From the IMG/VR virus record IMGVR_UViG_3300014972_000058: DNA of 6,088 nt; one strand, given 5' to 3'. Position numbers and translations under genes: made by a program. This stretch comes from a virus. Lineage: Duplodnaviria > Heunggongvirae > Uroviricota > Caudoviricetes. Below, in pieces: positions 1-6,088 of this stretch (its first letter is position 1; every line of letters starts with the position of its first letter). Below the pieces are notes generated by a model. The model saw only the letters and a program-made list of their open reading frames with translations. It was not told the origin of the DNA and searched no databases.

Positions 1-91
1 TGGCGTTATCACGGTAATGATTCAGCCCCAGACTAAGCGCACCACAGGCCACCAGCAGGGCAATGATGACCACGCACAGTACGCGGTTCAT
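1..91 (-). CDS. Rz: Rz-type i-spanin (inner-membrane spanin subunit), first 30 codons only; gene continues past the window start
   Basis: Reverse-complement of 1-91 translates to MNRVLCVVIIALLVACGALSLGLNHYRDNA: an N-terminal transmembrane segment followed by the NHYRDNA motif recalled from lambda Rz (…VNHYRDNAITYK…). Lies downstream of the endolysin as expected. The embedded Rz1 frame would be outside the window. Confidence 0.75.
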   Translation of the reverse strand, partial: MNRVLCVVIIALLVACGALSLGLNHYRDNA

Positions 92-92
92 T

Positions 93-230
93 TCACCACC
101 AGCGTATCTGACCGATGAAATAACCGGAGGCCATAATCACAAACACCAGCCAGATAAGAATGAACTTCCAGGTGGATAATTTTTCAGCCATCACTCGAAT
201 CTCCCGAATCAGTTTGCTAAAATCAAACAC
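93..230 (-). CDS. Hypothetical small single-pass membrane protein (45 aa from GTG at 230; 32 aa if ATG at 191), stop adjacent to the Rz start
   Basis: Hand translation: MFDFSKLIREIRVMAEKLSTWKFILIWLVFVIMASGYFIGQIRWW. AAAGGAG lies 5 nt upstream of the GTG; hydrophobic stretch WKFILIWLVFVIMASGYFIG; stop TGA at 95-93 is one base from the Rz ATG at 91-89 (TGAaATG), suggesting translational coupling. No family recognised. Confidence 0.4.
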   Translation of the reverse strand: MFDFSKLIREIRVMAEKLSTWKFILIWLVFVIMASGYFIGQIRWW

Positions 231-266
231 ACTTTCTCCTTTGACTTTTCCGGAGTCAGGAAACAC

Positions 267-300
267 AAAACCCCGCTTGGTGCCAACAAACGGGGTTTTT
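267..300. terminator. Hairpin with U/A-rich flanks on both strands (bidirectional terminator-like) between the endolysin and the small ORF/Rz
   Basis: AAAACCCCG (267-275) pairs with CGGGGTTTT (291-299) around a 15-nt loop; followed by TTTTTACTTTTATT on the plus strand and TTTTGTGTTTCC on the minus strand. Confidence 0.4.
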
Positions 301-389
301 ACTTTTATTCACTTACGTTTCGCCAGTTCGCAGGATTTCGTGTTATCCGCCCGCGTGGCCATGCCTTATTTTTCAGCAAAATATTCTGC

Positions 390-923
390 TTATCTGTCGA
401 TTCCCCAGCACGCCAGCGCGCTCTCCTGGTCACGACGGGATACCTGACCATAACAGTTATTTGAGCGGACACGGCAGTCTCTGCCACCGTCCTTAATCCA
501 CCAGCGAATCGCCTCACACGCTCCCCTGCGATCACCTGCATTAATTCGTTTATAAAACGTCGACGGGAAACACTTACCGGGACCAATGTTGTACGGACAG
601 AATGACGCGATCCCCGCTTTCTGGGGTTCACTCAATGGCACTCTGATGTTTTTCTCCACCCATGCCAGCGCCTTATCACGCTCAATGGCGTTAACCCGGT
701 CGCATTTTTCCTTCGACAACTTCATGCCCGGAACGACAGGTTTGCCATCCACCAGGATGGCACCGCGGCAGATGGTCCAGATACCCGCGCCATCACGGTA
801 TGCCGTGGTGTGGTTACCTTCCTTTTCATCCAGAAACTGGTCGAGAATGTCAGGCGCAGGCGCACCAGCGGCAATCAGCGCCAGAACGGCAGCCGACAGG
901 CCGTATCTGATTTTTGCGTTCAT
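390..923 (-). CDS. R: SAR endolysin, phage 21 R / T4-lysozyme-like (GH24) muramidase
   Basis: 177-aa ORF with a Gly/Ala-rich weakly hydrophobic N-terminus (YGLSAAVLALIAAGAPA) typical of signal-anchor-release domains, then a lysozyme core with acidic and Thr residues (EKEGNHTTAYRDGAGIWT) and a …RINAGD.RGAC… block resembling P21 R-type lysozymes. Paired with a pinholin upstream. No obvious Shine-Dalgarno before the ATG at 923. Confidence 0.88.
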   Translation of the reverse strand: MNAKIRYGLSAAVLALIAAGAPAPDILDQFLDEKEGNHTTAYRDGAGIWTICRGAILVDGKPVVPGMKLSKEKCDRVNAIERDKALAWVEKNIRVPLSEPQKAGIASFCPYNIGPGKCFPSTFYKRINAGDRRGACEAIRWWIKDGGRDCRVRSNNCYGQVSRRDQESALACWGIDR

Positions 924-1028
924 GGATATTTATCAGGATTTATCGGTTTCTGAGCCCTAGATATGTTTATCAGTTCCAGCCTGTTGCCTCAGGCTGCTAA
1001 CAGGTCAATACAATCATGAGGATTATTT

Positions 1029-1301
1029 ATGGACAATAACACCATTTCTCTACAGGAGTTGCTCGACAGCATTTCCAGGCTTCGGGAAGACGTGAATACC
1101 CTTACCGTCGCCTTCTCATATCTGGCATTCTCAATTCCAAGGGAACAGATGCAATCAACGCTGGCATCAATCCAGTTTGAATCATGCAATCCCAAATGGT
1201 CTCAGGAACAACAAGACTCTTTCAGGCGGCTTGCTGTATTACTGGATGAAAAATATGCTGGTAAAATTACCATTTCGGCGGACTCTTCAGAGAACCCGTA
1301 A
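1029..1301 (+). CDS. Hypothetical 90-aa protein, antisense to the late operon and convergent with the YdfR-like gene (35-bp 3' overlap)
   Basis: GAGGA lies 7 nt upstream of the ATG at 1029. Predicted soluble, helix-rich product (MDNNTISLQELLDSISRLREDVNTLTVAFSYLAF…); no family recognised. A possible promoter TTGCCT(984-989)-N19-TACAAT(1009-1014) overlaps a 7-bp hairpin at 977-996. The competing minus-strand ORF 989-1195 has no RBS and odd composition. Confidence 0.45.
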   Translation: MDNNTISLQELLDSISRLREDVNTLTVAFSYLAFSIPREQMQSTLASIQFESCNPKWSQEQQDSFRRLAVLLDEKYAGKITISADSSENP

Positions 1302-1611
1302 TTATTCCCGGTAGTTTTCCTCTGTAGGTTATCAACACATCCTGCGCCTCTAAAATTACGGGGCGCTTTTCCGGCGACTGCTCATCCCCTTCACATAACC
1401 CGGCAGCAACATCCAGGAAGACCTGTCTGATGCTCCTTCTGGCTGCTGCCTCATAAAACTCCAGCGAGGCACCTTCAACACGGTCCAGCGAGATGTCCAG
1501 GTCAAAAATTTCACCGTCAAAGCGTTTTTTGTCCCGTAACGCTAAAGTTACCGTAACTTTATTCTCAAAATTGCGGATCCCTTTCACAATCAGTTCATAG
1601 TTTTGAGTCAT
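1267..1611 (-). CDS. ydfR: YdfR-like (DUF1327-type) small lambdoid prophage protein between holin and endolysin; C-terminal third diverged
   Basis: 114-aa ORF whose first ~70 residues (MTQNYELIVKGIRNFENKVTVTLALRDKKRFDGEIFDLDISLDRVEGASLEFYEAAARRSIRQVFLDVA…) resemble my recollection of E. coli Qin-prophage YdfR, which occupies the same holin-lysozyme position. GGGGAGAG RBS; ATG at 1611 sits 5 nt after the holin stop. Family assignment is from memory, not a search. Confidence 0.6.
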   Translation of the reverse strand: MTQNYELIVKGIRNFENKVTVTLALRDKKRFDGEIFDLDISLDRVEGASLEFYEAAARRSIRQVFLDVAAGLCEGDEQSPEKRPVILEAQDVLITYRGKLPGIITGSLKSPPKW

Positions 1612-1615
1612 TGAA

Positions 1616-1831
1616 TTACTCTCCCCGTGCAGCCTTACGACGGTCCTCTCTGATTTTGAAATACAGGTTAGTCAGATATGTCAGCAGCCCAAACAGCAGA
1701 CTCCCCAGCACGCCTATTGCCGCCCACTGAGACGGGGAAACCCTGTCCAGCAACTGCAGGAACCAGTAGCCCGTTCCCACCGCTGACGTGGTGTATGACA
1801 CACCTGTTGTGATTTTTTCCATCTGGTACAT
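1616..1831 (-). CDS. S: Class II pinholin (phage 21 S21-like) with dual-start motif (Met1 at 1831, Met4 at 1822)
   Basis: From the internal Met of the 97-aa track ORF: [71 protein letters not shown] (71 aa), closely matching the recalled S21 pinholin. GGAG lies 7 nt upstream of the ATG at 1831. The extension to 1909 has no homology and overlaps a terminator. Confidence 0.88.
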
Positions 1832-1865
1832 ACCCCGTCTCCCGTTATCCGGAAGCTGACAACAA

Positions 1866-1897
1866 TAAAAAAAGCCACCAGTTAAGTACTGATGGCT
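1866..1897 (-). terminator. Rho-independent terminator downstream of nanS-p, upstream of the holin
   Basis: On the minus-strand RNA a 9-bp stem (AGCCAUCAG / CUGGUGGCU, one G-U pair) with a 7-nt loop is followed by seven U. On the plus strand the same stem has a C-A mismatch and no U-tract, so it is minus-strand specific. Confidence 0.6.
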
Positions 1898-1981
1898 CTG
1901 ATAACTCATGCAGGCATCTCAGACGACCCACTGACACTACCGGTGAGTTTAACGATACCTTCCATTTGGCTGGCTCACTTT

Positions 1982-3835
1982 TTATGATGATGCCGGTGCA
2001 TTTATCTCCAGCACCAGACTTTCTATCTCAACGCCATACGCTGCATTTTTGGTAATATCCGTCAGCGTCAGCGCATTCAGCCCCAGTGTCAGACTGTCTT
2101 TTATGACCTGGAATGCCGGGCCAGCCACTCCATTCAGTTTCGGAGTAACCGTGGCACTGCCGGCGGTGAACACCAGCTCCAGCGTCTGCCAGTCGTTACT
2201 GTAATTCCCGAACTCGCCCAACTTTGTGTTTCCTGCTTTCTTGTGATGCATCAGATTCAGTTTGCCGTCTGTGGTCTGGGTGAAGAACGACATCAGGAAC
2301 GGGTTACCAGTCCCGGTCATCGCCACGACGTCAGGTAACGCTACATCGGTATACAGATAAATTCCCAGACCGAACTGGTTGTTGGTCAGTGCGCCTGACA
2401 GTCGAAACTTACAGCTCAGTCTGCCACCCCGTGTCAGCAGGGAGACTGCGTCATCCACCGGGCGCGTCAGGGACCAGGCTTTATTGCTCTGCTTGGTGAT
2501 CTTAAATACACCATCTGACAACTGAATTCCGCCATTCTTAATGCTCCAGCCCTGCGCAGCAGCGTCTCCGGCTGTCGGCAACAGGGAGATTGTGCGTATG
2601 GATGCATCTTCAGACGGCCCCGATGGCGTGTCGCCGCCGGGCGAGGGTTTGATTTCCGGTGCCTTACCACTAATGAAGGCTAAGGTGCGACCGGCTACGT
2701 TCAGAATAGCAGTTGCCATACGATCGGGAATAATGCCACGACGCGCCCATGAGCTGAAATGCGTCGGGCGATTTGATGATACCCAGTTTTTGTTCGTTCG
2801 GGATGCCGAACCGTAATAACCAGACCCGGCAATATCAGGATCTTCTGACGGGTTGTTTGTCGGTGTATTAACTCCGCTACCATCGGTCATAAAGGGAACA
2901 AAATAAATCTGCTGGGATTCTTTACCTTTATATGCACCATATACCACTTCATATTGCGTACCGTGTTCTTGTTTCCACGCGTATGTCGTGTCGCCACAAA
3001 TCCAGGGGACTGATGCCGGACTTCCACCGTGACACTGCGCCGCCAGCCCGGCAAGGTCAGCACGGAACTGCTGTACCATTGCAAGAAATGCTGCTGGCTG
3101 CTGGGCGTAACTGGCATTCGTCATATCGAATTCCCCCTGCATCCAGCATATCGCCAGCAAAACGTTTTTCGGGTTTTTCTGCAATGCTGCCTTCGTGCGG
3201 AAAAGCAGATCCTGATATAACGGCTTACCCACTCCCCAGCGAGCCGAATCCTGACTGGCTCCCGTGGACTCGCTGAATGTCCCCTCCGTGCCCTGGGTGA
3301 ATGCCGAACCACCACGACAGCATGGTACCAGCAGGATCCCCGCATTATTAGGGATATACGGAAGCAGTTTTTTGGCAATATGTAAGCCCTGTCCGACACA
3401 GCCGTACTGCCCTTTGCTCAGGTCAGCCCGGGGATGGTTAATCGTACTCATATCCTGAACATCATGCAGACAATGGTCAGCAGGAATGATGTCGTTAAAT
3501 ACGCATACTTCACCACCGGGAGTCACTGTGTTACGACGGGCCAGTTGCTTAATGCGCGGATGGGGCGCATCGTATGAATCCGGAAGCGGAAGCCCTTCAC
3601 CGTAAGCCATGGCATTGGATTGCCCGGCCAGTACGATGACGTAGTACCACTCCGGCTCAGTTGCACCACTGACGACCACATCACCTTCTGCTGCAATCGC
3701 CTGCATCAGGGTATAAGGGGTTATGGCCACCGGACTACCAAACGGCTGCCAGCCCTCCTTCAGTTTTTGTGTCAGTCGTTTCGCAAGGTCTGACGGCGAT
3801 GCCGCCCTGACCACGTCATAGTGTTTAAATGCCAT
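1982..3835 (-). CDS. nanS: Prophage NanS-p-type 9-O-acetyl-sialate esterase (DUF1737 N-terminus + SASA/SGNH esterase domain + C-terminal domain)
   Basis: 617-aa ORF; N-terminus MAFKHYDVVRAASPSDLAKRL… matches the DUF1737 start of Stx-phage NanS-p as I recall it; GQSN esterase motif at VIVLAGQSNAMAYGEG; GGAGG-type RBS before the ATG at 3835. Position (after the tRNAs, before S) matches the yjhS/nanS-p slot of Stx phages. Confidence 0.82.
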   Translation of the reverse strand: MAFKHYDVVRAASPSDLAKRLTQKLKEGWQPFGSPVAITPYTLMQAIAAEGDVVVSGATEPEWYYVIVLAGQSNAMAYGEGLPLPDSYDAPHPRIKQLARRNTVTPGGEVCVFNDIIPADHCLHDVQDMSTINHPRADLSKGQYGCVGQGLHIAKKLLPYIPNNAGILLVPCCRGGSAFTQGTEGTFSESTGASQDSARWGVGKPLYQDLLFRTKAALQKNPKNVLLAICWMQGEFDMTNASYAQQPAAFLAMVQQFRADLAGLAAQCHGGSPASVPWICGDTTYAWKQEHGTQYEVVYGAYKGKESQQIYFVPFMTDGSGVNTPTNNPSEDPDIAGSGYYGSASRTNKNWVSSNRPTHFSSWARRGIIPDRMATAILNVAGRTLAFISGKAPEIKPSPGGDTPSGPSEDASIRTISLLPTAGDAAAQGWSIKNGGIQLSDGVFKITKQSNKAWSLTRPVDDAVSLLTRGGRLSCKFRLSGALTNNQFGLGIYLYTDVALPDVVAMTGTGNPFLMSFFTQTTDGKLNLMHHKKAGNTKLGEFGNYSNDWQTLELVFTAGSATVTPKLNGVAGPAFQVIKDSLTLGLNALTLTDITKNAAYGVEIESLVLEINAPASS

Positions 3836-4028
3836 GAATCCTCCCGGGCGGGATAATGTTGTGAGTCAGATAAGGAGCAGGCTGAAGTCCGGAAGTTACA
3901 GGACAATGGCAGAAGGGAGACTACAGCCCGCAATTCGAAAAAGACCGCGCAGTTGCGCAGAGTGATTACTATGGGGTATTATTCGCCAGCTGAAATATTA
4001 CTTCACGTTTTATTGTTTATTCCTTGCC

Positions 4029-4057
4029 GCCCGCGTCTCCCAGCGCGGGCTTTTTTT
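4029..4057 (+). terminator. Plus-strand rho-independent terminator with no plus-strand gene upstream
   Basis: GCCCGCG (4029-4035) pairs with CGCGGGC (4044-4050) around an 8-nt loop, followed by T7 (4051-4057). On the minus strand the stem is preceded by the A-run, so it is plus-strand specific. Confidence 0.55.
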
Positions 4058-4061
4058 GTCC

Positions 4062-4330
4062 ATAAGAAAGCCCCTCCGGAGAGGGGCTAAAGCCGCGTAT
4101 CTGTATCATCATGCACATGGTGCCGGGTGCCTCCCGGTGAGTTCAGCCCGGTGCCACTAAACCCGCGTCATTCTCGTTTTGATAATCAGAGATTATACCG
4201 TCACCAGTCGCCCCTCCGCTCAGGGGGATTCACCATGCGAAATTTTTTTAACAAATGCCCAGTCTGACAGGCAACTGTCAACTTACTGAATTGTGAGCAA
4301 CATAGCATTTAACGGGGAACCTGTTTTCTG
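4062..4330 (-). repeat. Copy 1 of a diverged ~240-bp direct repeat unit; candidate structured sRNA gene ending in a hairpin plus U-rich tract on the minus strand
   Basis: Shares with copy 2, in the same order: the perfect hairpin AGCCCCTC-CGGA-GAGGGGCT (4069-4088), CATGGTGCCGGGTGCCTCCCGGTGA.TTCAG (4116-4146), GCCCCTCCGC.CAGGGGGATTCACCATGC (4210-4238), TTTTAACAAA and CTGAATTGTGAG (4286-4297). Spacers between blocks differ in sequence and length. On the minus strand the hairpin is followed by UUCUUAUG. Confidence 0.5.
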
Positions 4331-4361
4331 CAGTAAAAAGGCCCACCGGAGCGGATGGGCC
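4331..4361 (-). terminator. Minus-strand intrinsic terminator immediately upstream (in transcription order) of repeat copy 1
   Basis: GGCCCA (4340-4345) pairs with TGGGCC (4356-4361) around a 10-nt loop; on the minus strand it is followed by UUUUUACUG (plus-strand A5 at 4335-4339). Confidence 0.5.
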
Positions 4362-4547
4362 TGGAAGGATAGCGGTCATGTGATGCCGGTTTCCCGGTAA
4401 CTCAGCACCGGTATCTGAGTCAACGTTTTCTCTACTGGGTCATTTCCGATACGCCCTGCCTGCTGACAGGCTTTCATCACATCTGAAAATATAGCACCCT
4501 GACTGATACTGTAGTACCTAAGGTTCCAGAAACTGTGATGTATCCGG

Positions 4548-4770
4548 CACAGAAAAGCCCCTCCGGAGAGGGGCTGGAGAGTGGCGCTATGTGCCATTGC
4601 ATGGTGCCGGGTGCCTCCCGGTGAATTCAGTACCAGCACCTGAATCCGCGATTATCCCATATACCTACTCGCTGATTGCCCCTCCGCACAGGGGGATTCA
4701 CCATGCCAGTTTCTTTTAACAAACTCCCCGCAAACCAGACAACAGTCAACCGCCTGAATTGTGAGACATT
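4548..4770 (-). repeat. Copy 2 of the diverged ~240-bp direct repeat unit; candidate structured sRNA gene with 3' terminator hairpin on the minus strand
   Basis: Same conserved blocks as copy 1, offset 468-487 bp: hairpin 4556-4575, block 4600-4630, block 4678-4706, CTGAATTGTGAG at 4754-4765. On the minus strand the hairpin is followed by UUUCUGUG. Lies between the tRNA-operon terminator and the 4331-4361 terminator. Confidence 0.5.
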
Positions 4771-4771
4771 T

Positions 4772-4794
4772 AAAAAAAGCCCGCAAAAGCGAGC
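4772..4794 (-). terminator. Rho-independent terminator of the tRNA cluster
   Basis: Minus-strand RNA GCUCGC-UUUU-GCGGGC (6-bp stem with one G-U pair) followed by U7; 16 nt downstream of the last tRNA. Confidence 0.6.
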
Positions 4795-4809
4795 CAGGGA
4801 AAATAAGTG

Positions 4810-4886
4810 TGGCGCGTTGTACTGGATTCGAACCAGTGACCGATTGCTTAGAAGGCAATTGCTCTGTCCGGCTGAGCTAACAACGC
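4810..4886 (-). tRNA. argO: tRNA-Arg (anticodon UCU), canonical cloverleaf with encoded CCA
   Basis: Reverse-complement GCGTTGT-TA-GCTC…GAGC-A-ATTGC-CTTCTAA-GCAAT-CGGTC-ACTGG-TTCGAAT-CCAGT-ACAACGC-G-CCA: all stems perfectly paired, anticodon TCT. Gene name assigned only by position in the ileZ-argN-argO order recalled for Stx phages. Confidence 0.85.
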
Positions 4887-4899
4887 AGGATACAGATAA

Positions 4900-4976
4900 T
4901 GGACCGCCTTCGGGGACCCGAACTCCGCGCAACCAGCTTCGAAAGCTGGCGCTCTTTCCTGATGAGCTAATGGCGG
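4900..4976 (-). tRNA. argN: tRNA-Arg-like (anticodon UCG by my fold), imperfect stems; may be functional or a decaying copy
   Basis: Reverse-complement CCGCCAT-TA-GCTC…GAGC-G-CCAGC-TTTCGAA-GCTGG-TTGCG-CGGAG-TTCGGGT-CCCCG-AAGGCGG-T-CCA. D and anticodon stems perfect; one A-A mismatch in the acceptor stem, one A-C mismatch in the T stem, and G at the usual A58 position. Name by position only. Confidence 0.6.
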
Positions 4977-4983
4977 TATGTGA

Positions 4984-5059
4984 TGGTGGCCCTTGCTGGA
5001 TTTGAACCAGCGACCTGGCGATTATGAGTCGCTCGCTCTCACCACTGAGCTAAAGGGCC
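4984..5059 (-). tRNA. ileZ: tRNA-Ile2 (anticodon CAU, lysidine-type, reads AUA)
   Basis: Reverse-complement GGCCCTTTAGCTCAGTGGTGAGAGCGAGCGACTCATAATCGCCAGGTCGCTGGTTCAAATCCAGCAAGGGCCACCA: canonical cloverleaf, CAT anticodon, and much closer to my recollection of E. coli ileX than to elongator tRNA-Met. Confidence 0.8.
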
Positions 5060-5108
5060 GGGAGCAGAATAATAATGGTGCGTAATTAATTCTGCAATCT
5101 CATCCGTT

Positions 5109-6088
5109 TCAAACGATTAAATCCTGAACTTCCCTGACTGTCTGCTCAAAACGTCCGGTCTCCAGTTCAACGCCAATCGCACGACGCCCGAGCGCCAGTG
5201 TCACTTTTACCGTTGAACCTGAGCCCATAAAAAAATCTGCAACCAGGTCACCCGGACGACTGCTTGCGCTGATTATCTGCTGCAGCATTTCTGCCGGTTT
5301 TTCGCACGGATGTTTCCCGGGATAGAACTGCACCGGTTTATGTGTCCACACATCCGTGTACGGCACCTGCGCCGTCACACCAAAATACCGCCGCAGATGC
5401 TTATATTCACTCTGCAGCTCCACATACTGCCGGTTCAGTGACGTATACGTATCCACCAGCTGGTGGTGGGGCTTTTCCAGTTCACCGCGCTGATGTTTCT
5501 CTTCTGCCACCCGGGCAAACAGCGACTGTAATTTCAGATAATCGCTTTCGTTCGGTAGCTGCCACTGACTGGCACTGAACCAGTGCGACACCATGTTTTT
5601 CTTTCCTGTGGCATCTGCAATCTGTTTTGCCGTTATCCCCAGGGCAGCGCGCGCATCACGAAAGTAAGAAATCAGCGGGGCCATCACATGCTGTTTCAGT
5701 GCACTGCCCTTCGCCGCATACCCGGCATCTTTCGGACGATACGGCCCCTGATAATGTTCCGCGAACAGAATGCGCTCTGTGGCGGGGAAATACGCCCGCA
5801 GGCTTTCCTTGTTGCATCCGTTCCAGCGTCCGGACGGCTTCGCCCAGATAATATGGTTCAGCACACTGAAGCGTTCACGCATCATGATTTCGATATCAGA
5901 TGCCAGGCGATGACCACAGAACAGGTAAAGACTTCCGACAGGTTTCAGCACCCGCCAGAACTGCGCCAGACACTGGTCCAGCCACTTCAGGTAATCATCG
6001 TCGCCCTTCCACTGGTTATCCCAGCCCTCAGGCTTCACTTTAAAGTACGGCGGGGGCGGGTGGCCCTGGAAAACCGAACGGTTGTTAC
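5109..6088 (-). CDS. DNA methyltransferase, beta-class amino-MTase (N6-adenine or N4-cytosine; PF01555-like), 5' end outside the window
   Basis: The in-frame minus-strand reading upstream of the track's GTG start at 6038 stays open to the window edge and encodes …VFQGHPPPPYFKVKPEGW…, a (D/N/S)PPY-type catalytic motif IV. The FxGxG SAM-binding motif (DFFMGSGST) lies near the C-terminus, giving the beta-class motif order. Stop at 5109-5111. Confidence 0.82.
   Translation of the reverse strand, partial: NNRSVFQGHPPPPYFKVKPEGWDNQWKGDDDYLKWLDQCLAQFWRVLKPVGSLYLFCGHRLASDIEIMMRERFSVLNHIIWAKPSGRWNGCNKESLRAYFPATERILFAEHYQGPYRPKDAGYAAKGSALKQHVMAPLISYFRDARAALGITAKQIADATGKKNMVSHWFSASQWQLPNESDYLKLQSLFARVAEEKHQRGELEKPHHQLVDTYTSLNRQYVELQSEYKHLRRYFGVTAQVPYTDVWTHKPVQFYPGKHPCEKPAEMLQQIISASSRPGDLVADFFMGSGSTVKVTLALGRRAIGVELETGRFEQTVREVQDLIV

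Follow-up and report, generated by a model that had tools for sequence, protein, structure and literature searches.

The window considered here, a stretch of 6,088 nt analysed at its full length, is best read along its minus strand, which is the late direction and bears the tRNAs, nanS-p and the lysis genes alike. In this orientation, the window presents a DNA methylase gene, the ileZ/argN/argO tRNAs, a 974-bp coding-free stretch, the nanS-p esterase gene, genes encoding a holin, YdfR and a lysozyme, and the start of Rz, of which only the first 91 nt lie inside the window. The features assigned, listed by position and with their basis in brackets, are as follows (CE10 is an Escherichia coli genome carrying a near-identical prophage).

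1-1909, minus strand: lysis cassette (Pfam PF04971, PF07041 and PF00959; CE10 annotation)
93-266, minus strand: small membrane ORF (PHROG 6632)
390-923, minus strand: phage lysozyme (Pfam)
1267-1611, minus strand: YdfR, DUF1327 (Pfam)
1616-1831/1909 (ORF 1616-1909), minus strand: holin, P21-type (Pfam)
1982-3835, minus strand: nanS-p, prophage sialate O-acetylesterase, 617 aa (Pfam DUF1737, SASA and DUF6645; SASA family esterase in CE10)
3836-3944, minus strand: conserved nanS-p leader (alignment, 78-90% identity)
3945-3960, minus strand: late-sense hairpin with a T-run, CTGCGCAACTGCGCGG TCTTTTT (terminator scan; alignment with 933W, phi296 and E2348/69)
3988-4057, plus strand: convergent Hfq-type sRNA (69/71 identical to an E2348/69 PP6 sRNA; terminator scan)
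4058-4297, minus strand: STnc100 sRNA gene, copy a (Rfam RF02076, 165.4 bits, E=2e-38, over 4058-4267)
4333-4506, minus strand: middle unit, a diverged STnc100/PasD-like sRNA candidate (Rfam STnc100, 30.1 bits; predicted fold)
4545-4765, minus strand: STnc100 sRNA gene, copy b (Rfam RF02076, 136.3 bits, E=7e-31, over 4545-4735)
4766-4771, no strand: empty joint, AAATGT in the late sense (junction comparison; BLAST break points)
4772-4795, minus strand: intrinsic terminator after the tRNA cluster (terminator scan; aligns with 933W and Stx2_95)
4810-4886, minus strand: tRNA-Arg (TCT), argO homologue (ARAGORN; Rfam 70.1 bits)
4900-4976, minus strand: tRNA-Arg (TCG), argN homologue, somewhat degenerate (ARAGORN; Rfam 42.9 bits)
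4984-5059, minus strand: tRNA with a CAT anticodon (tRNA-Ile2), ileZ homologue (ARAGORN; Rfam tRNA 72.5 bits; tRNA-Ile by PGAP in CE10)
5109-6054, minus strand: DNA N6/N4 methyltransferase, 3' part (Pfam PF01555, E=3.7e-37; DNA-methyltransferase in CE10)

Rz is annotated as frameshifted in CE10. The last 34 nt of the window (6055-6088) matched nothing when compared with complete genomes of E. coli, viral contigs of IMG/VR and representative genomes of GTDB.

The order tRNA-Ile2, tRNA-Arg, tRNA-Arg, NanS-p, S, R and Rz, recognized as Stx phage-like in an earlier sequence-only reading of this DNA, was confirmed by ARAGORN, Rfam and Pfam, as well as by synteny with phage 933W. The three tRNA genes are identical to 933W ileZ, argN and argO at 76/76, 69/77 and 76/77 positions, respectively, with the argN homologue containing four non-canonical pairs according to Rfam. 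As in the late region of Stx-converting phages, the trio is followed by a terminator, which corresponds to the element annotated as such upstream of stx2A in 933W, and Pfam domains place S, R and Rz downstream of nanS-p. The nanS-p leader aligns with its counterparts in 933W, phi296, Stx2_KH16-043 and E2348/69 PP6 at the identity level given above. In the complete prophage, the methylase gene is placed between Q and the tRNAs.

Examination of the space between the tRNA cluster and nanS-p revealed two STnc100 genes, one diverged STnc100/PasD-like unit and, on the opposite strand, one convergent sRNA gene, each with its own predicted sigma-70 promoter and intrinsic terminator. A terminator scan of positions 3700-5200 returned 10 terminator-like sites, as compared to 1.5 +/- 1.1 in shuffled sequence. 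A consensus promoter scan of the slot called no minus-strand promoter; those given here are proposed from extended -10 motifs and the 5' end of PasD. The repeats previously noted in this coding-free region (an 88-nt pair of 80% identity, a 31-nt pair of 97% identity and a 22-nt terminator unit) are indeed real and terminator-bounded, yet what had been described as noncoding repeats are tandem STnc100 sRNA genes (RF02076).

Both STnc100 copies span model positions 1-206, the full model, and belong to the family, since each exceeds the RF02076 gathering score of 47 bits. Copy b, which is covered by repeat families D1-D3, presents a conserved upstream box (CTCACAATTCAG..GTTGAC, 4736-4765), a predicted extended -10 element (TGTTAAAAG), a putative 5' end near 4706, placed there from the 5' end of PasD2 (GCAUGGUG), and a terminator stem at 4556-4575. 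Copy a, which aligns with the STnc100 found downstream of stx2B in 933W, presents an upstream box at 4268-4297, a predicted extended -10 element (TGTTAAAAA), a putative 5' end near 4238 and its own terminator stem at 4069-4088. Comparison with CE10 supports a prophage late-region location for both. STnc100, also termed EcOnc27 or sRNA103 (PMC12711010), has been mapped 75 nt downstream of stx2 (PMC12370729) and was detected by Hfq CRAC as EcOnc27 (PMC4104026), while in EDL933, 11 expressed copies were seen by RNA-seq, with one being confirmed by Northern blot (PMC5331693). From the mosaic alignments, we infer that the tandem copies in the window arose by recombination between related prophages. 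A 13-nt inverted repeat bracketing the sRNA array was considered as the end of a mobile element and rejected as a probable coincidence, since both arms are terminator halves and are not conserved in 933W.

The convergent sRNA faces STnc100 copy a. Its predicted promoter comprises TTGCGC (3953-3958), an 18-nt spacer and TATTAT (3977-3982), with the -35 element being supplied by the plus-strand face of the hairpin at 3945-3960, itself conserved in 933W; the 5' end of the RNA is uncertain, possibly lying as far upstream as about 3879. The seed CCUUGCC (4022-4028), complementary to the target motif GGCAAGG, is followed by a terminator (4029-4050) and then U7. The sRNA of EPEC E2348/69 PP6 to which this sequence is nearly identical is 'E2348C_1409.E2348C_1408.IGR', which has RIL-seq support, with the cfa 5'UTR as partner at 767 chimeras, and whose 3' end maps to the same point as that of the window sRNA (PMC8550237 supplements). 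Homology that includes the seed and terminator, together with the same position and orientation, places the window sRNA in the EcOnc08/21/42 family. Assignment as AsxR or AgvB was rejected, given a different sequence and given that a search of the window at E<=1 yielded no match to RF02703 or RF02702, families with a conserved 3' region of about 42 nt (the AsxR match in 933W reaches 88 bits); alignment revealed only position, orientation and the -35 region to be in common. A weak OmrA-B match (25 bits, E=0.15) was ascribed to the terminator and dismissed as noise.

Convergent sRNA pairs have been described at the lambdoid PR' moron site, namely EcOnc27/AsxR in Sp5 and AgvB in Sp10/Sp17 (Tree et al., 2014, Mol Cell; PMC4104026). 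As in those pairs, the window sRNAs are flanked by the moron site and the conserved ORF of the esterase, STnc100/EcOnc27 is the sense partner and the antisense sRNA converges upon it terminator to terminator. By contrast, the window contains no moron CDS, has the sense partner in triplicate (two bona fide copies and a diverged one) and, in place of AsxR or AgvB, has an antisense partner of the EcOnc08/21/42 family.

The middle unit, lying between the two STnc100 genes, presents an extended -10 element (TGCTATATT, 4488-4496), a putative 5' end near 4481, a terminator stem at 4339-4362 and a predicted fold consisting of a closing helix, inner hairpins and the terminator. When the stretch was searched alone, the unit matched RF02076 with E=4e-5, aligning over its full length to the consensus architecture, although its score lies below the gathering score of 47 bits and so does not place it within STnc100; PasD2 itself scores 41.4 bits. 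Identity with PasD was also considered and rejected (local alignment z = 0.5). On sequence and predicted structure, the middle unit is thus classed as a candidate that would work as a relative of STnc100 and PasD, and is not filed as a member. It is present, as two alleles, in 673 of 5,426 E. coli genomes (about 12% of complete genomes).

PasD1 and PasD2 of EPEC E2348/69 (Pearl Mizrahi, 2021; Zhu, Shabalina and Storz, 2026 preprint) have been seen by Northern blot and RIL-seq, and PasD, found upstream of an esterase, shares an ancestor with STnc100 (bioRxiv 10.64898/2026.05.13.724894). Like the window units, PasD1 and PasD2 are located between Q and the sialate esterase, also have GCAUGGUGAAUCC as 5' end and are of STnc100-like architecture. 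They differ in the central part and seed, the window copies a and b being true STnc100 members.

The possibility that the middle unit (here taken as 4333-4544) is instead a gene encoding a small protein of 33-55 aa (PHROG 23557) appears unlikely. A 33-aa ORF is open in both alleles, is matched by PHROG 23557 and appears in some phage records as a hypothetical protein, yet that family, the sole protein-family match, derives from this very ORF prediction. The ORF has no evident Shine-Dalgarno sequence, no Pfam match was obtained and tblastn found no more distant protein homologues. Moreover, because the differences between the alleles are spread 8/10/9 over the three codon positions, the unit bears no coding signal; 14 codons differ nonsynonymously versus five synonymously. 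The predicted fold and Rfam alignment, on the other hand, fit the STnc100 architecture, and one hairpin pair is kept by changes on both sides between the alleles. Considered as an sRNA gene, the middle unit (about 4333-4506) may, at roughly even odds, represent an unnamed third lineage of the STnc100/PasD superfamily. Were this so, the window would show a three-member array of superfamily sRNA genes, and the site beside the toxin position would be one at which sRNA genes of prophages are duplicated, diverge and become reshuffled.

The reported absence of StxA and StxB from the slot was upheld. When Stx2A/B and Stx1cA/B were used as tblastn queries and both cassettes as blastn queries against the window, only chance-level matches were obtained. 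The best of these (27 bits) is on the wrong strand and falls inside STnc100 copy a, a gene that also adjoins stx in 933W, and all DNA matches (blastn with short words) are 16 nt or shorter. No ORF of stxA or stxB size is present, and a search of the window for stx remnants found none of any kind. By contrast, the view that the ~970 bp between the tRNAs and nanS-p constitutes the toxin slot did not hold. The roughly 1.33-kb stx2AB cassette of 933W and Stx2_95 maps to the joint at 4766-4771, with BLAST break points aligning window position 4768 with position 3413 of the sequence L003 on one side and with 4745 on the other. The tRNA terminator and the CTCACAATTCAG box are separated by 6 nt here, versus about 1.33 kb in 933W and Stx2_95. 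Judged from these cassette borders, the toxin slot is the 6-nt joint and not the 970 bp. Mosaic alignments further suggest that the tRNA/terminator segment and the STnc100 box serve as flanks for the exchange of cargo such as stx.

CE10 is 100% identical to the window over 3700-5100, with 14 differing positions over 9-6054, and presents the order Q, a small hypothetical gene, methylase, three tRNAs, slot, esterase and lysis genes. The same slot is carried by about 350 complete E. coli genomes, including the extraintestinal pathogenic CE10 and APEC O18; ATCC 11775 is a further carrier strain. In 933W, the order is tRNAs, terminator, stx2AB, STnc100, AsxR (antisense) and nanS-p. The window shares with 933W and Sakai Sp5 the tRNA trio, the tRNA terminator, STnc100, the nanS-p leader and gene, and the lysis gene order, the synteny with 933W being interrupted by stx2AB at the joint. 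It differs in the absence of stx2AB, in having a methylase gene between Q and the tRNAs, and in its Qin-like lysis cassette that includes YdfR; the Q gene is 690 nt long in CE10 and 474 nt in 933W. The entire window backbone is matched by the Stx2a phage Stx2_95 (LC567838; Q, hypothetical gene, methylase, three tRNAs, stx2AB, intergenic region, yjhS), with stx2AB added at the joint. Both Stx2_95 and the stx-free PPyecE_EH1910 (LC567835) have a backbone of Q, a 198-nt ORF and methylase, with nanS-p, holin and endolysin downstream; in PPyecE_EH1910, a toxin-antitoxin pair and a TerB-like gene stand where the tRNAs and stx would be. Another Stx2a phage, Stx2_KH16-043, has STnc100 between stxB and nanS-p, while a Stx1c phage carries intact stx1AB, two STnc100 copies and the esterase. 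The stx-free Traversvirus phages phi296, phi315 and phi367, as well as TL-2011a, resemble the window in their tRNAs, terminator, STnc100, convergent sRNA and NanS, and differ in that STnc100 occurs only once and 38 nt of filler occupy the joint, versus 6 nt here.

Taken together, it is about 85% probable that the window corresponds to the early part of a lambdoid prophage late operon of Stx phage-like build without the toxin, in which the slot is a small-RNA gene block. A rival view is that such a prophage descended from a Stx phage by precise deletion of or recombination at stxAB, rather than from a lineage that never carried the toxin. Descent by loss is suggested by the backbone, including Q, methylase and tRNAs, held in common with Stx2_95, by the joint falling exactly at the cassette borders and by the repeated loss proposed in the literature next to esterase-linked sRNAs. 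Still, such descent seems improbable, given how the window retains no trace of stx, how the closest Stx phages reach no more than 87-92% identity in the parts held in common, how toxin-free prophages of 99.8-99.9% identity occur commonly among extraintestinal and commensal strains and how the same empty arrangement, with a different filler, recurs in other toxin-free phages, phi296 among them.

It is more doubtful still that the repeat units function solely in cis, whether as stacked terminators, insulators or late-operon recombination sequences, rather than as trans-acting sRNAs. The strong enrichment of terminator-like sites and the coincidence of unit borders with mosaic break points and the stx cassette border agree with such a role, yet homologues of these units are discrete, abundant, Hfq-bound RNAs (EcOnc27 by Hfq CRAC), with STnc100 copies in EDL933 and PasD having been detected by the RNA-based approaches cited above, and with the E2348/69 homologue of the convergent sRNA taking part in hundreds of RIL-seq chimeras. 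A role in cis and one as trans-acting sRNAs are not mutually exclusive.

Finally, that the repeats represent another cargo, taken up in place of the stx cassette, is scarcely credible, for although stx is absent and the repeats fill the tRNA-to-nanS-p space, the observation that the sequence-only reading had itself named as telling against this idea, namely repeat units alongside intact stx, was made in 933W, Stx2_95 and the Stx1c phage, with STnc100 lying between stxB and nanS-p in 933W, Stx2_KH16-043 and Stx2_95 and at the published site close to stx2, with two copies beside intact stx1c, and with most phage records that match the slot being Stx-converting phages. Since STnc100 adjoins intact stx in Stx phages, the sRNAs are backbone and not replacement cargo.

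With the slot understood as a small-RNA gene block, its place in late transcription can be considered. CE10 has its Q gene some 1.7 kb upstream of the tRNA cluster, with a candidate tR' being found 72 nt after the Q stop codon. The slot is a known moron position, in agreement with the earlier proposal, and in near-identical prophages it lies downstream of Q, which itself falls outside the window. By analogy with homologues described in the literature, the tRNAs and sRNAs would be transcribed on their own in the lysogen, where the sRNAs would act through Hfq on host and virulence mRNAs, and the successive terminators would prevent these transcripts from extending into nanS-p and the lysis genes. 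Once the prophage is induced, RNA polymerase modified by Q would start from PR' and pass through all of the terminators into nanS-p, S, R and Rz.

The arrangement of convergent sRNAs at the Q/PR' moron site is already known from Tree et al. (2014) and later papers; the sRNA block offers no new principle, and mild novelty attaches only to its middle element, which is unnamed. The main value of the analysis lies in correcting annotation, in that the tRNA-to-nanS-p space in toxin-free relatives is a block of Hfq-type small-RNA genes rather than junk repeats, with the same block accompanying stx in real Stx phages. In addition, the toxin cassette can now be placed precisely between two borders, the tRNA terminator and the STnc100 upstream box, and such a joint is useful for recognizing the gain or loss of stx and the presence of alternative cargo.

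In genome annotation pipelines, the slot region is labelled "hypothetical protein".

Across the window, the late region is read along the minus strand, and the order proposed from the sequence alone, namely, three tRNA genes followed by nanS-p and the lysis genes, was confirmed by ARAGORN, Rfam and domain hits. In the direction of reading, the features are:

5109 onward, minus: DNA methyltransferase, upstream of the tRNAs
4984-5059, minus: tRNA (anticodon CAT), ileZ homologue (ARAGORN, Rfam; 76/76 identical to 933W ileZ)
4900-4976, minus: tRNA-Arg (TCG), argN homologue (ARAGORN, Rfam; 69/77 identical to 933W argN)
4810-4886, minus: tRNA-Arg (TCT), argO homologue (ARAGORN, Rfam; 76/77 identical to 933W argO)
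1982-3835, minus: nanS-p, 617 aa, with DUF1737, SASA and DUF6645 domains
1616-1909, minus: P21-type holin (domain search)
1267-1611, minus: DUF1327/YdfR protein (domain search)
390-923, minus: phage lysozyme (domain search)
first 91 nt of the window, minus: Rz-like protein, N-terminus only

The argN-like tRNA differs from 933W argN at eight positions, shows four non-canonical pairs when aligned by Rfam, carries TTCGG rather than TTCGA in its T-loop and scores 42.9 bits, as compared to 54.8 bits for 933W (Rfam). Decay is possible for this tRNA, ileZ and argO being intact.

The 974-bp coding-free slot between the tRNA cluster and nanS-p (3836-4809) contains no ORF resembling StxA or StxB, as the sequence-only reading had held, and only chance-level matches were obtained in tblastn searches with Stx2A/B and Stx1cA/B or short-word blastn searches with both cassettes. 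The repeats reported there are real, comprising an 88-nt pair of 80% identity, a 31-nt pair of 97% identity and a repeated terminator unit, and terminator-like sites are enriched, 10 being found vs. 1.5 +/- 1.1 in shuffled sequence. Rfam revealed two full-model matches to the sRNA STnc100 (RF02076; gathering score 47), namely, copy a (4058-4267, minus; 165.4 bits) and copy b (4545-4735, minus; 136.3 bits).

The sequence-only reading had further considered that these repeats replaced the toxin genes. The same sRNA genes, however, accompany intact stx. In the Stx2 phage 933W, ileZ-argN-argO and a terminator precede stx2A and stx2B, after which come STnc100 (207.7 bits), the oppositely oriented AsxR and nanS-p, while in a Stx1c phage, two STnc100 copies separate stx1AB from the downstream esterase. 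The Stx2a phage Stx2_95 shares the backbone of the window: Q and a 198-nt ORF precede the methylase and three tRNAs, and stx2AB is then followed by an intergenic region, yjhS (nanS-p) and the lysis genes. Of 303 phage records matching the slot, over half carry names of Stx-converting phages. Junction alignment placed the tRNA terminator (GGCTCGCTTTTGCGGGC and a T-run) some 1.33 kb from the STnc100 upstream box (CTCACAATTCAG..GTTGAC) in 933W and Stx2_95, with stx2AB in between, whereas in the window only 6 nt (AAATGT, 4766-4771) separate the two. As judged from these comparisons, the sRNA genes of the slot thus belong to the backbone rather than standing in for the toxin. Hence, of the two origins originally offered, replacement of the toxin by the repeats falls away, while a stx-free relative of Stx phages stands, as does the description of the locus as a moron site. 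Such a relative could have lost stx or never have carried it. Given that no stx deletion scar was found in the window, that identity to the nearest Stx phages reaches only 87-92% over common parts, and that toxin-free copies of 99.8-99.9% identity are common, a naturally toxin-free lineage is favoured over one that lost stx.

The slot is 100% identical in prophages of many E. coli, such as CE10, APEC O18 and ATCC 11775, and 353 genomes hold at least 80% of it as a single piece. Elsewhere, its content varies. At the joint where stx2AB lies in Stx2 phages, the toxin-free phi296 has a 38-nt filler, and it contains a single STnc100. Phage vB_EcoS-640R1 presents STnc100, the middle unit lying between copies a and b, and STnc100, without nanS-p. 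In prophage PP6 of EPEC E2348/69 (L008), ISEc13 (IS4-family) lies within the STnc100 gene (7112-8485), with the convergent sRNA seen by RIL-seq being intact. In PPyecE_EH1910 (L010), which is stx-free and has the same Q-methylase backbone, the place of the tRNAs and stx is taken (6155-7753) by genes annotated as 'plasmid stabilization protein', 'transcriptional regulator' and 'TciA/TerB-like protein'. The first two are read as a toxin-antitoxin pair, and the whole represents alternative cargo at the moron site. Mosaic break points coincide with the ends of sRNA units; conserved flanking segments may have allowed slot content to be swapped through homologous recombination.

A plus-strand terminator (4029-4050, with seven U after it) faces that of STnc100 copy a in convergent orientation. 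Of the 71 plus-strand nt up to 4057, 69 are identical to the PP6 sRNA 'E2348C_1409.E2348C_1408.IGR', for which Hfq RIL-seq identified the cfa 5'UTR (767 chimeras), dppA and tir as partners and GGCAAGG as target motif, with EcOnc08/21/42 being, according to those authors, the EHEC homologues (PMC8550237 supplements). CCUUGCC at 4022-4028 (plus) is complementary to that motif. In 933W, AsxR holds the same position and orientation, yet is unlike in sequence except for a common -35 region; Rfam detected neither AsxR nor AgvB in the window.

The middle unit (4333-4506, minus) yielded a full-length but sub-threshold STnc100 alignment (30.1 bits; E=4e-5 when searched alone). EPEC PasD2, which according to a 2026 preprint shares a common ancestor with STnc100 (bioRxiv 10.64898/2026.05.13.724894), scored 41.4 bits on the same model. 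The predicted fold follows the STnc100 plan, with a closing helix in which the 5' end pairs with the segment just ahead of the terminator, inner hairpins and then the terminator, and TGCTATATT precedes the closing helix at STnc100-like spacing. The unit is found in 673 of 5,426 complete E. coli genomes as two alleles, one of at least 99% identity and the other of 85.5%. Both keep a 33-aa ORF open; however, inter-allele differences are spread 8/10/9 over the codon positions, with 14 nonsynonymous vs. 5 synonymous codons, and in the variable first hairpin, pairing is kept, one pair being altered on both sides. With moderate confidence, the middle unit is considered to be an sRNA gene that has diverged, and not to encode a protein.

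An extended -10 element (TGTTAAAA[A/G]) is common to both STnc100 copies and 933W, lying 6 nt ahead of GCAUGGUG, the mapped 5' end of PasD2 (PMC8550237 supplements). Promoters of the sRNA genes were predicted from these two features; a general promoter scan made no call at the proposed STnc100 and middle-unit sites. A perfect 13-nt inverted repeat (GCGGGCTTTTTTT; 4045-4057 and 4772-4784) brackets the entire sRNA array, both arms being 3' halves of terminators. Conservation of the repeat does not extend to 933W, making coincidence the probable explanation.

In the CE10 prophage (L001), the order is RusA, Q, 198-nt ORF, methylase, three tRNAs, slot, esterase, holin, YdfR, lysozyme and a frameshifted Rz. 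At 11801-11868, a TATAAA hexamer is followed some 50 nt on by a hairpin and eight-T run, the hairpin lying 72 nt past the Q stop codon. These may correspond to a PR'/tR' pair and, if so, would yield a short RNA resembling lambda 6S or StxS. In lambdoid late control, intrinsic terminators are read through by Q-modified polymerase. Upon induction, this polymerase would get to nanS-p and the lysis genes by running past the tRNA terminator, the three terminators of the sRNA genes and a hairpin (3945-3960), while in the lysogen, the same terminators would confine transcription started at the tRNA and sRNA promoters. Window positions 1-8 and 6055-6088 found no match among complete E. coli genomes, GTDB representative genomes or IMG/VR contigs, mismatches to CE10 and all complete E. 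coli genomes numbering 6 over the former and 20 over the latter. Such divergence could stem from an unsequenced allele, from editing of the ends or from assembly errors there. At the 3' side, the match breaks off inside the methylase gene, beside the DPPY motif; the upstream position of Q, which lies outside the window, is accordingly established for near-identical prophages.

What is known of STnc100 expression and Hfq binding was established with homologues. In EDL933, eleven STnc100 copies are transcribed, one being confirmed by Northern blot (PMC5331693), EcOnc27 was found by Hfq CRAC (PMC4104026), and overexpression of sRNA103/EcOnc27 is reported to raise espA and fimZ transcripts (PMC12711010). 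Given the convergent sRNAs that Tree et al. (2014; PMC4104026) described at the PR' moron site, and later efforts placing STnc100 75 nt after stx2 (PMC12370729), tying STnc100 variants to clinical outcome (PMC12711010), mapping PasD and STnc100 beside Q and the sialate esterase (bioRxiv 10.64898/2026.05.13.724894) and documenting nanS-p in non-Stx prophages as well (PMC10462455), the presence of toxin-adjacent sRNAs is already known. The unnamed middle unit is the only mildly new element here.

Within the lysis cassette, a small membrane-protein ORF (93-266, minus; core MAEKLSTWKFILIWLVFVIMASGYFIGQIRWW) that matches PHROG 6632 and is not annotated in CE10 has a stop codon overlapping the Rz start codon. 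A 90-aa antisense ORF (1029-1301, plus) overlapping ydfR at its 3' end matches PHROG 2411, has no Pfam family and is listed as hypothetical in CE10. In 933W, the ant gene is inserted between R and Rz. In the gap from the lysozyme gene to the small ORF/Rz of the window, a GC-rich hairpin (268-300) with T-runs on both sides resembles an additional intrinsic terminator within the late operon.
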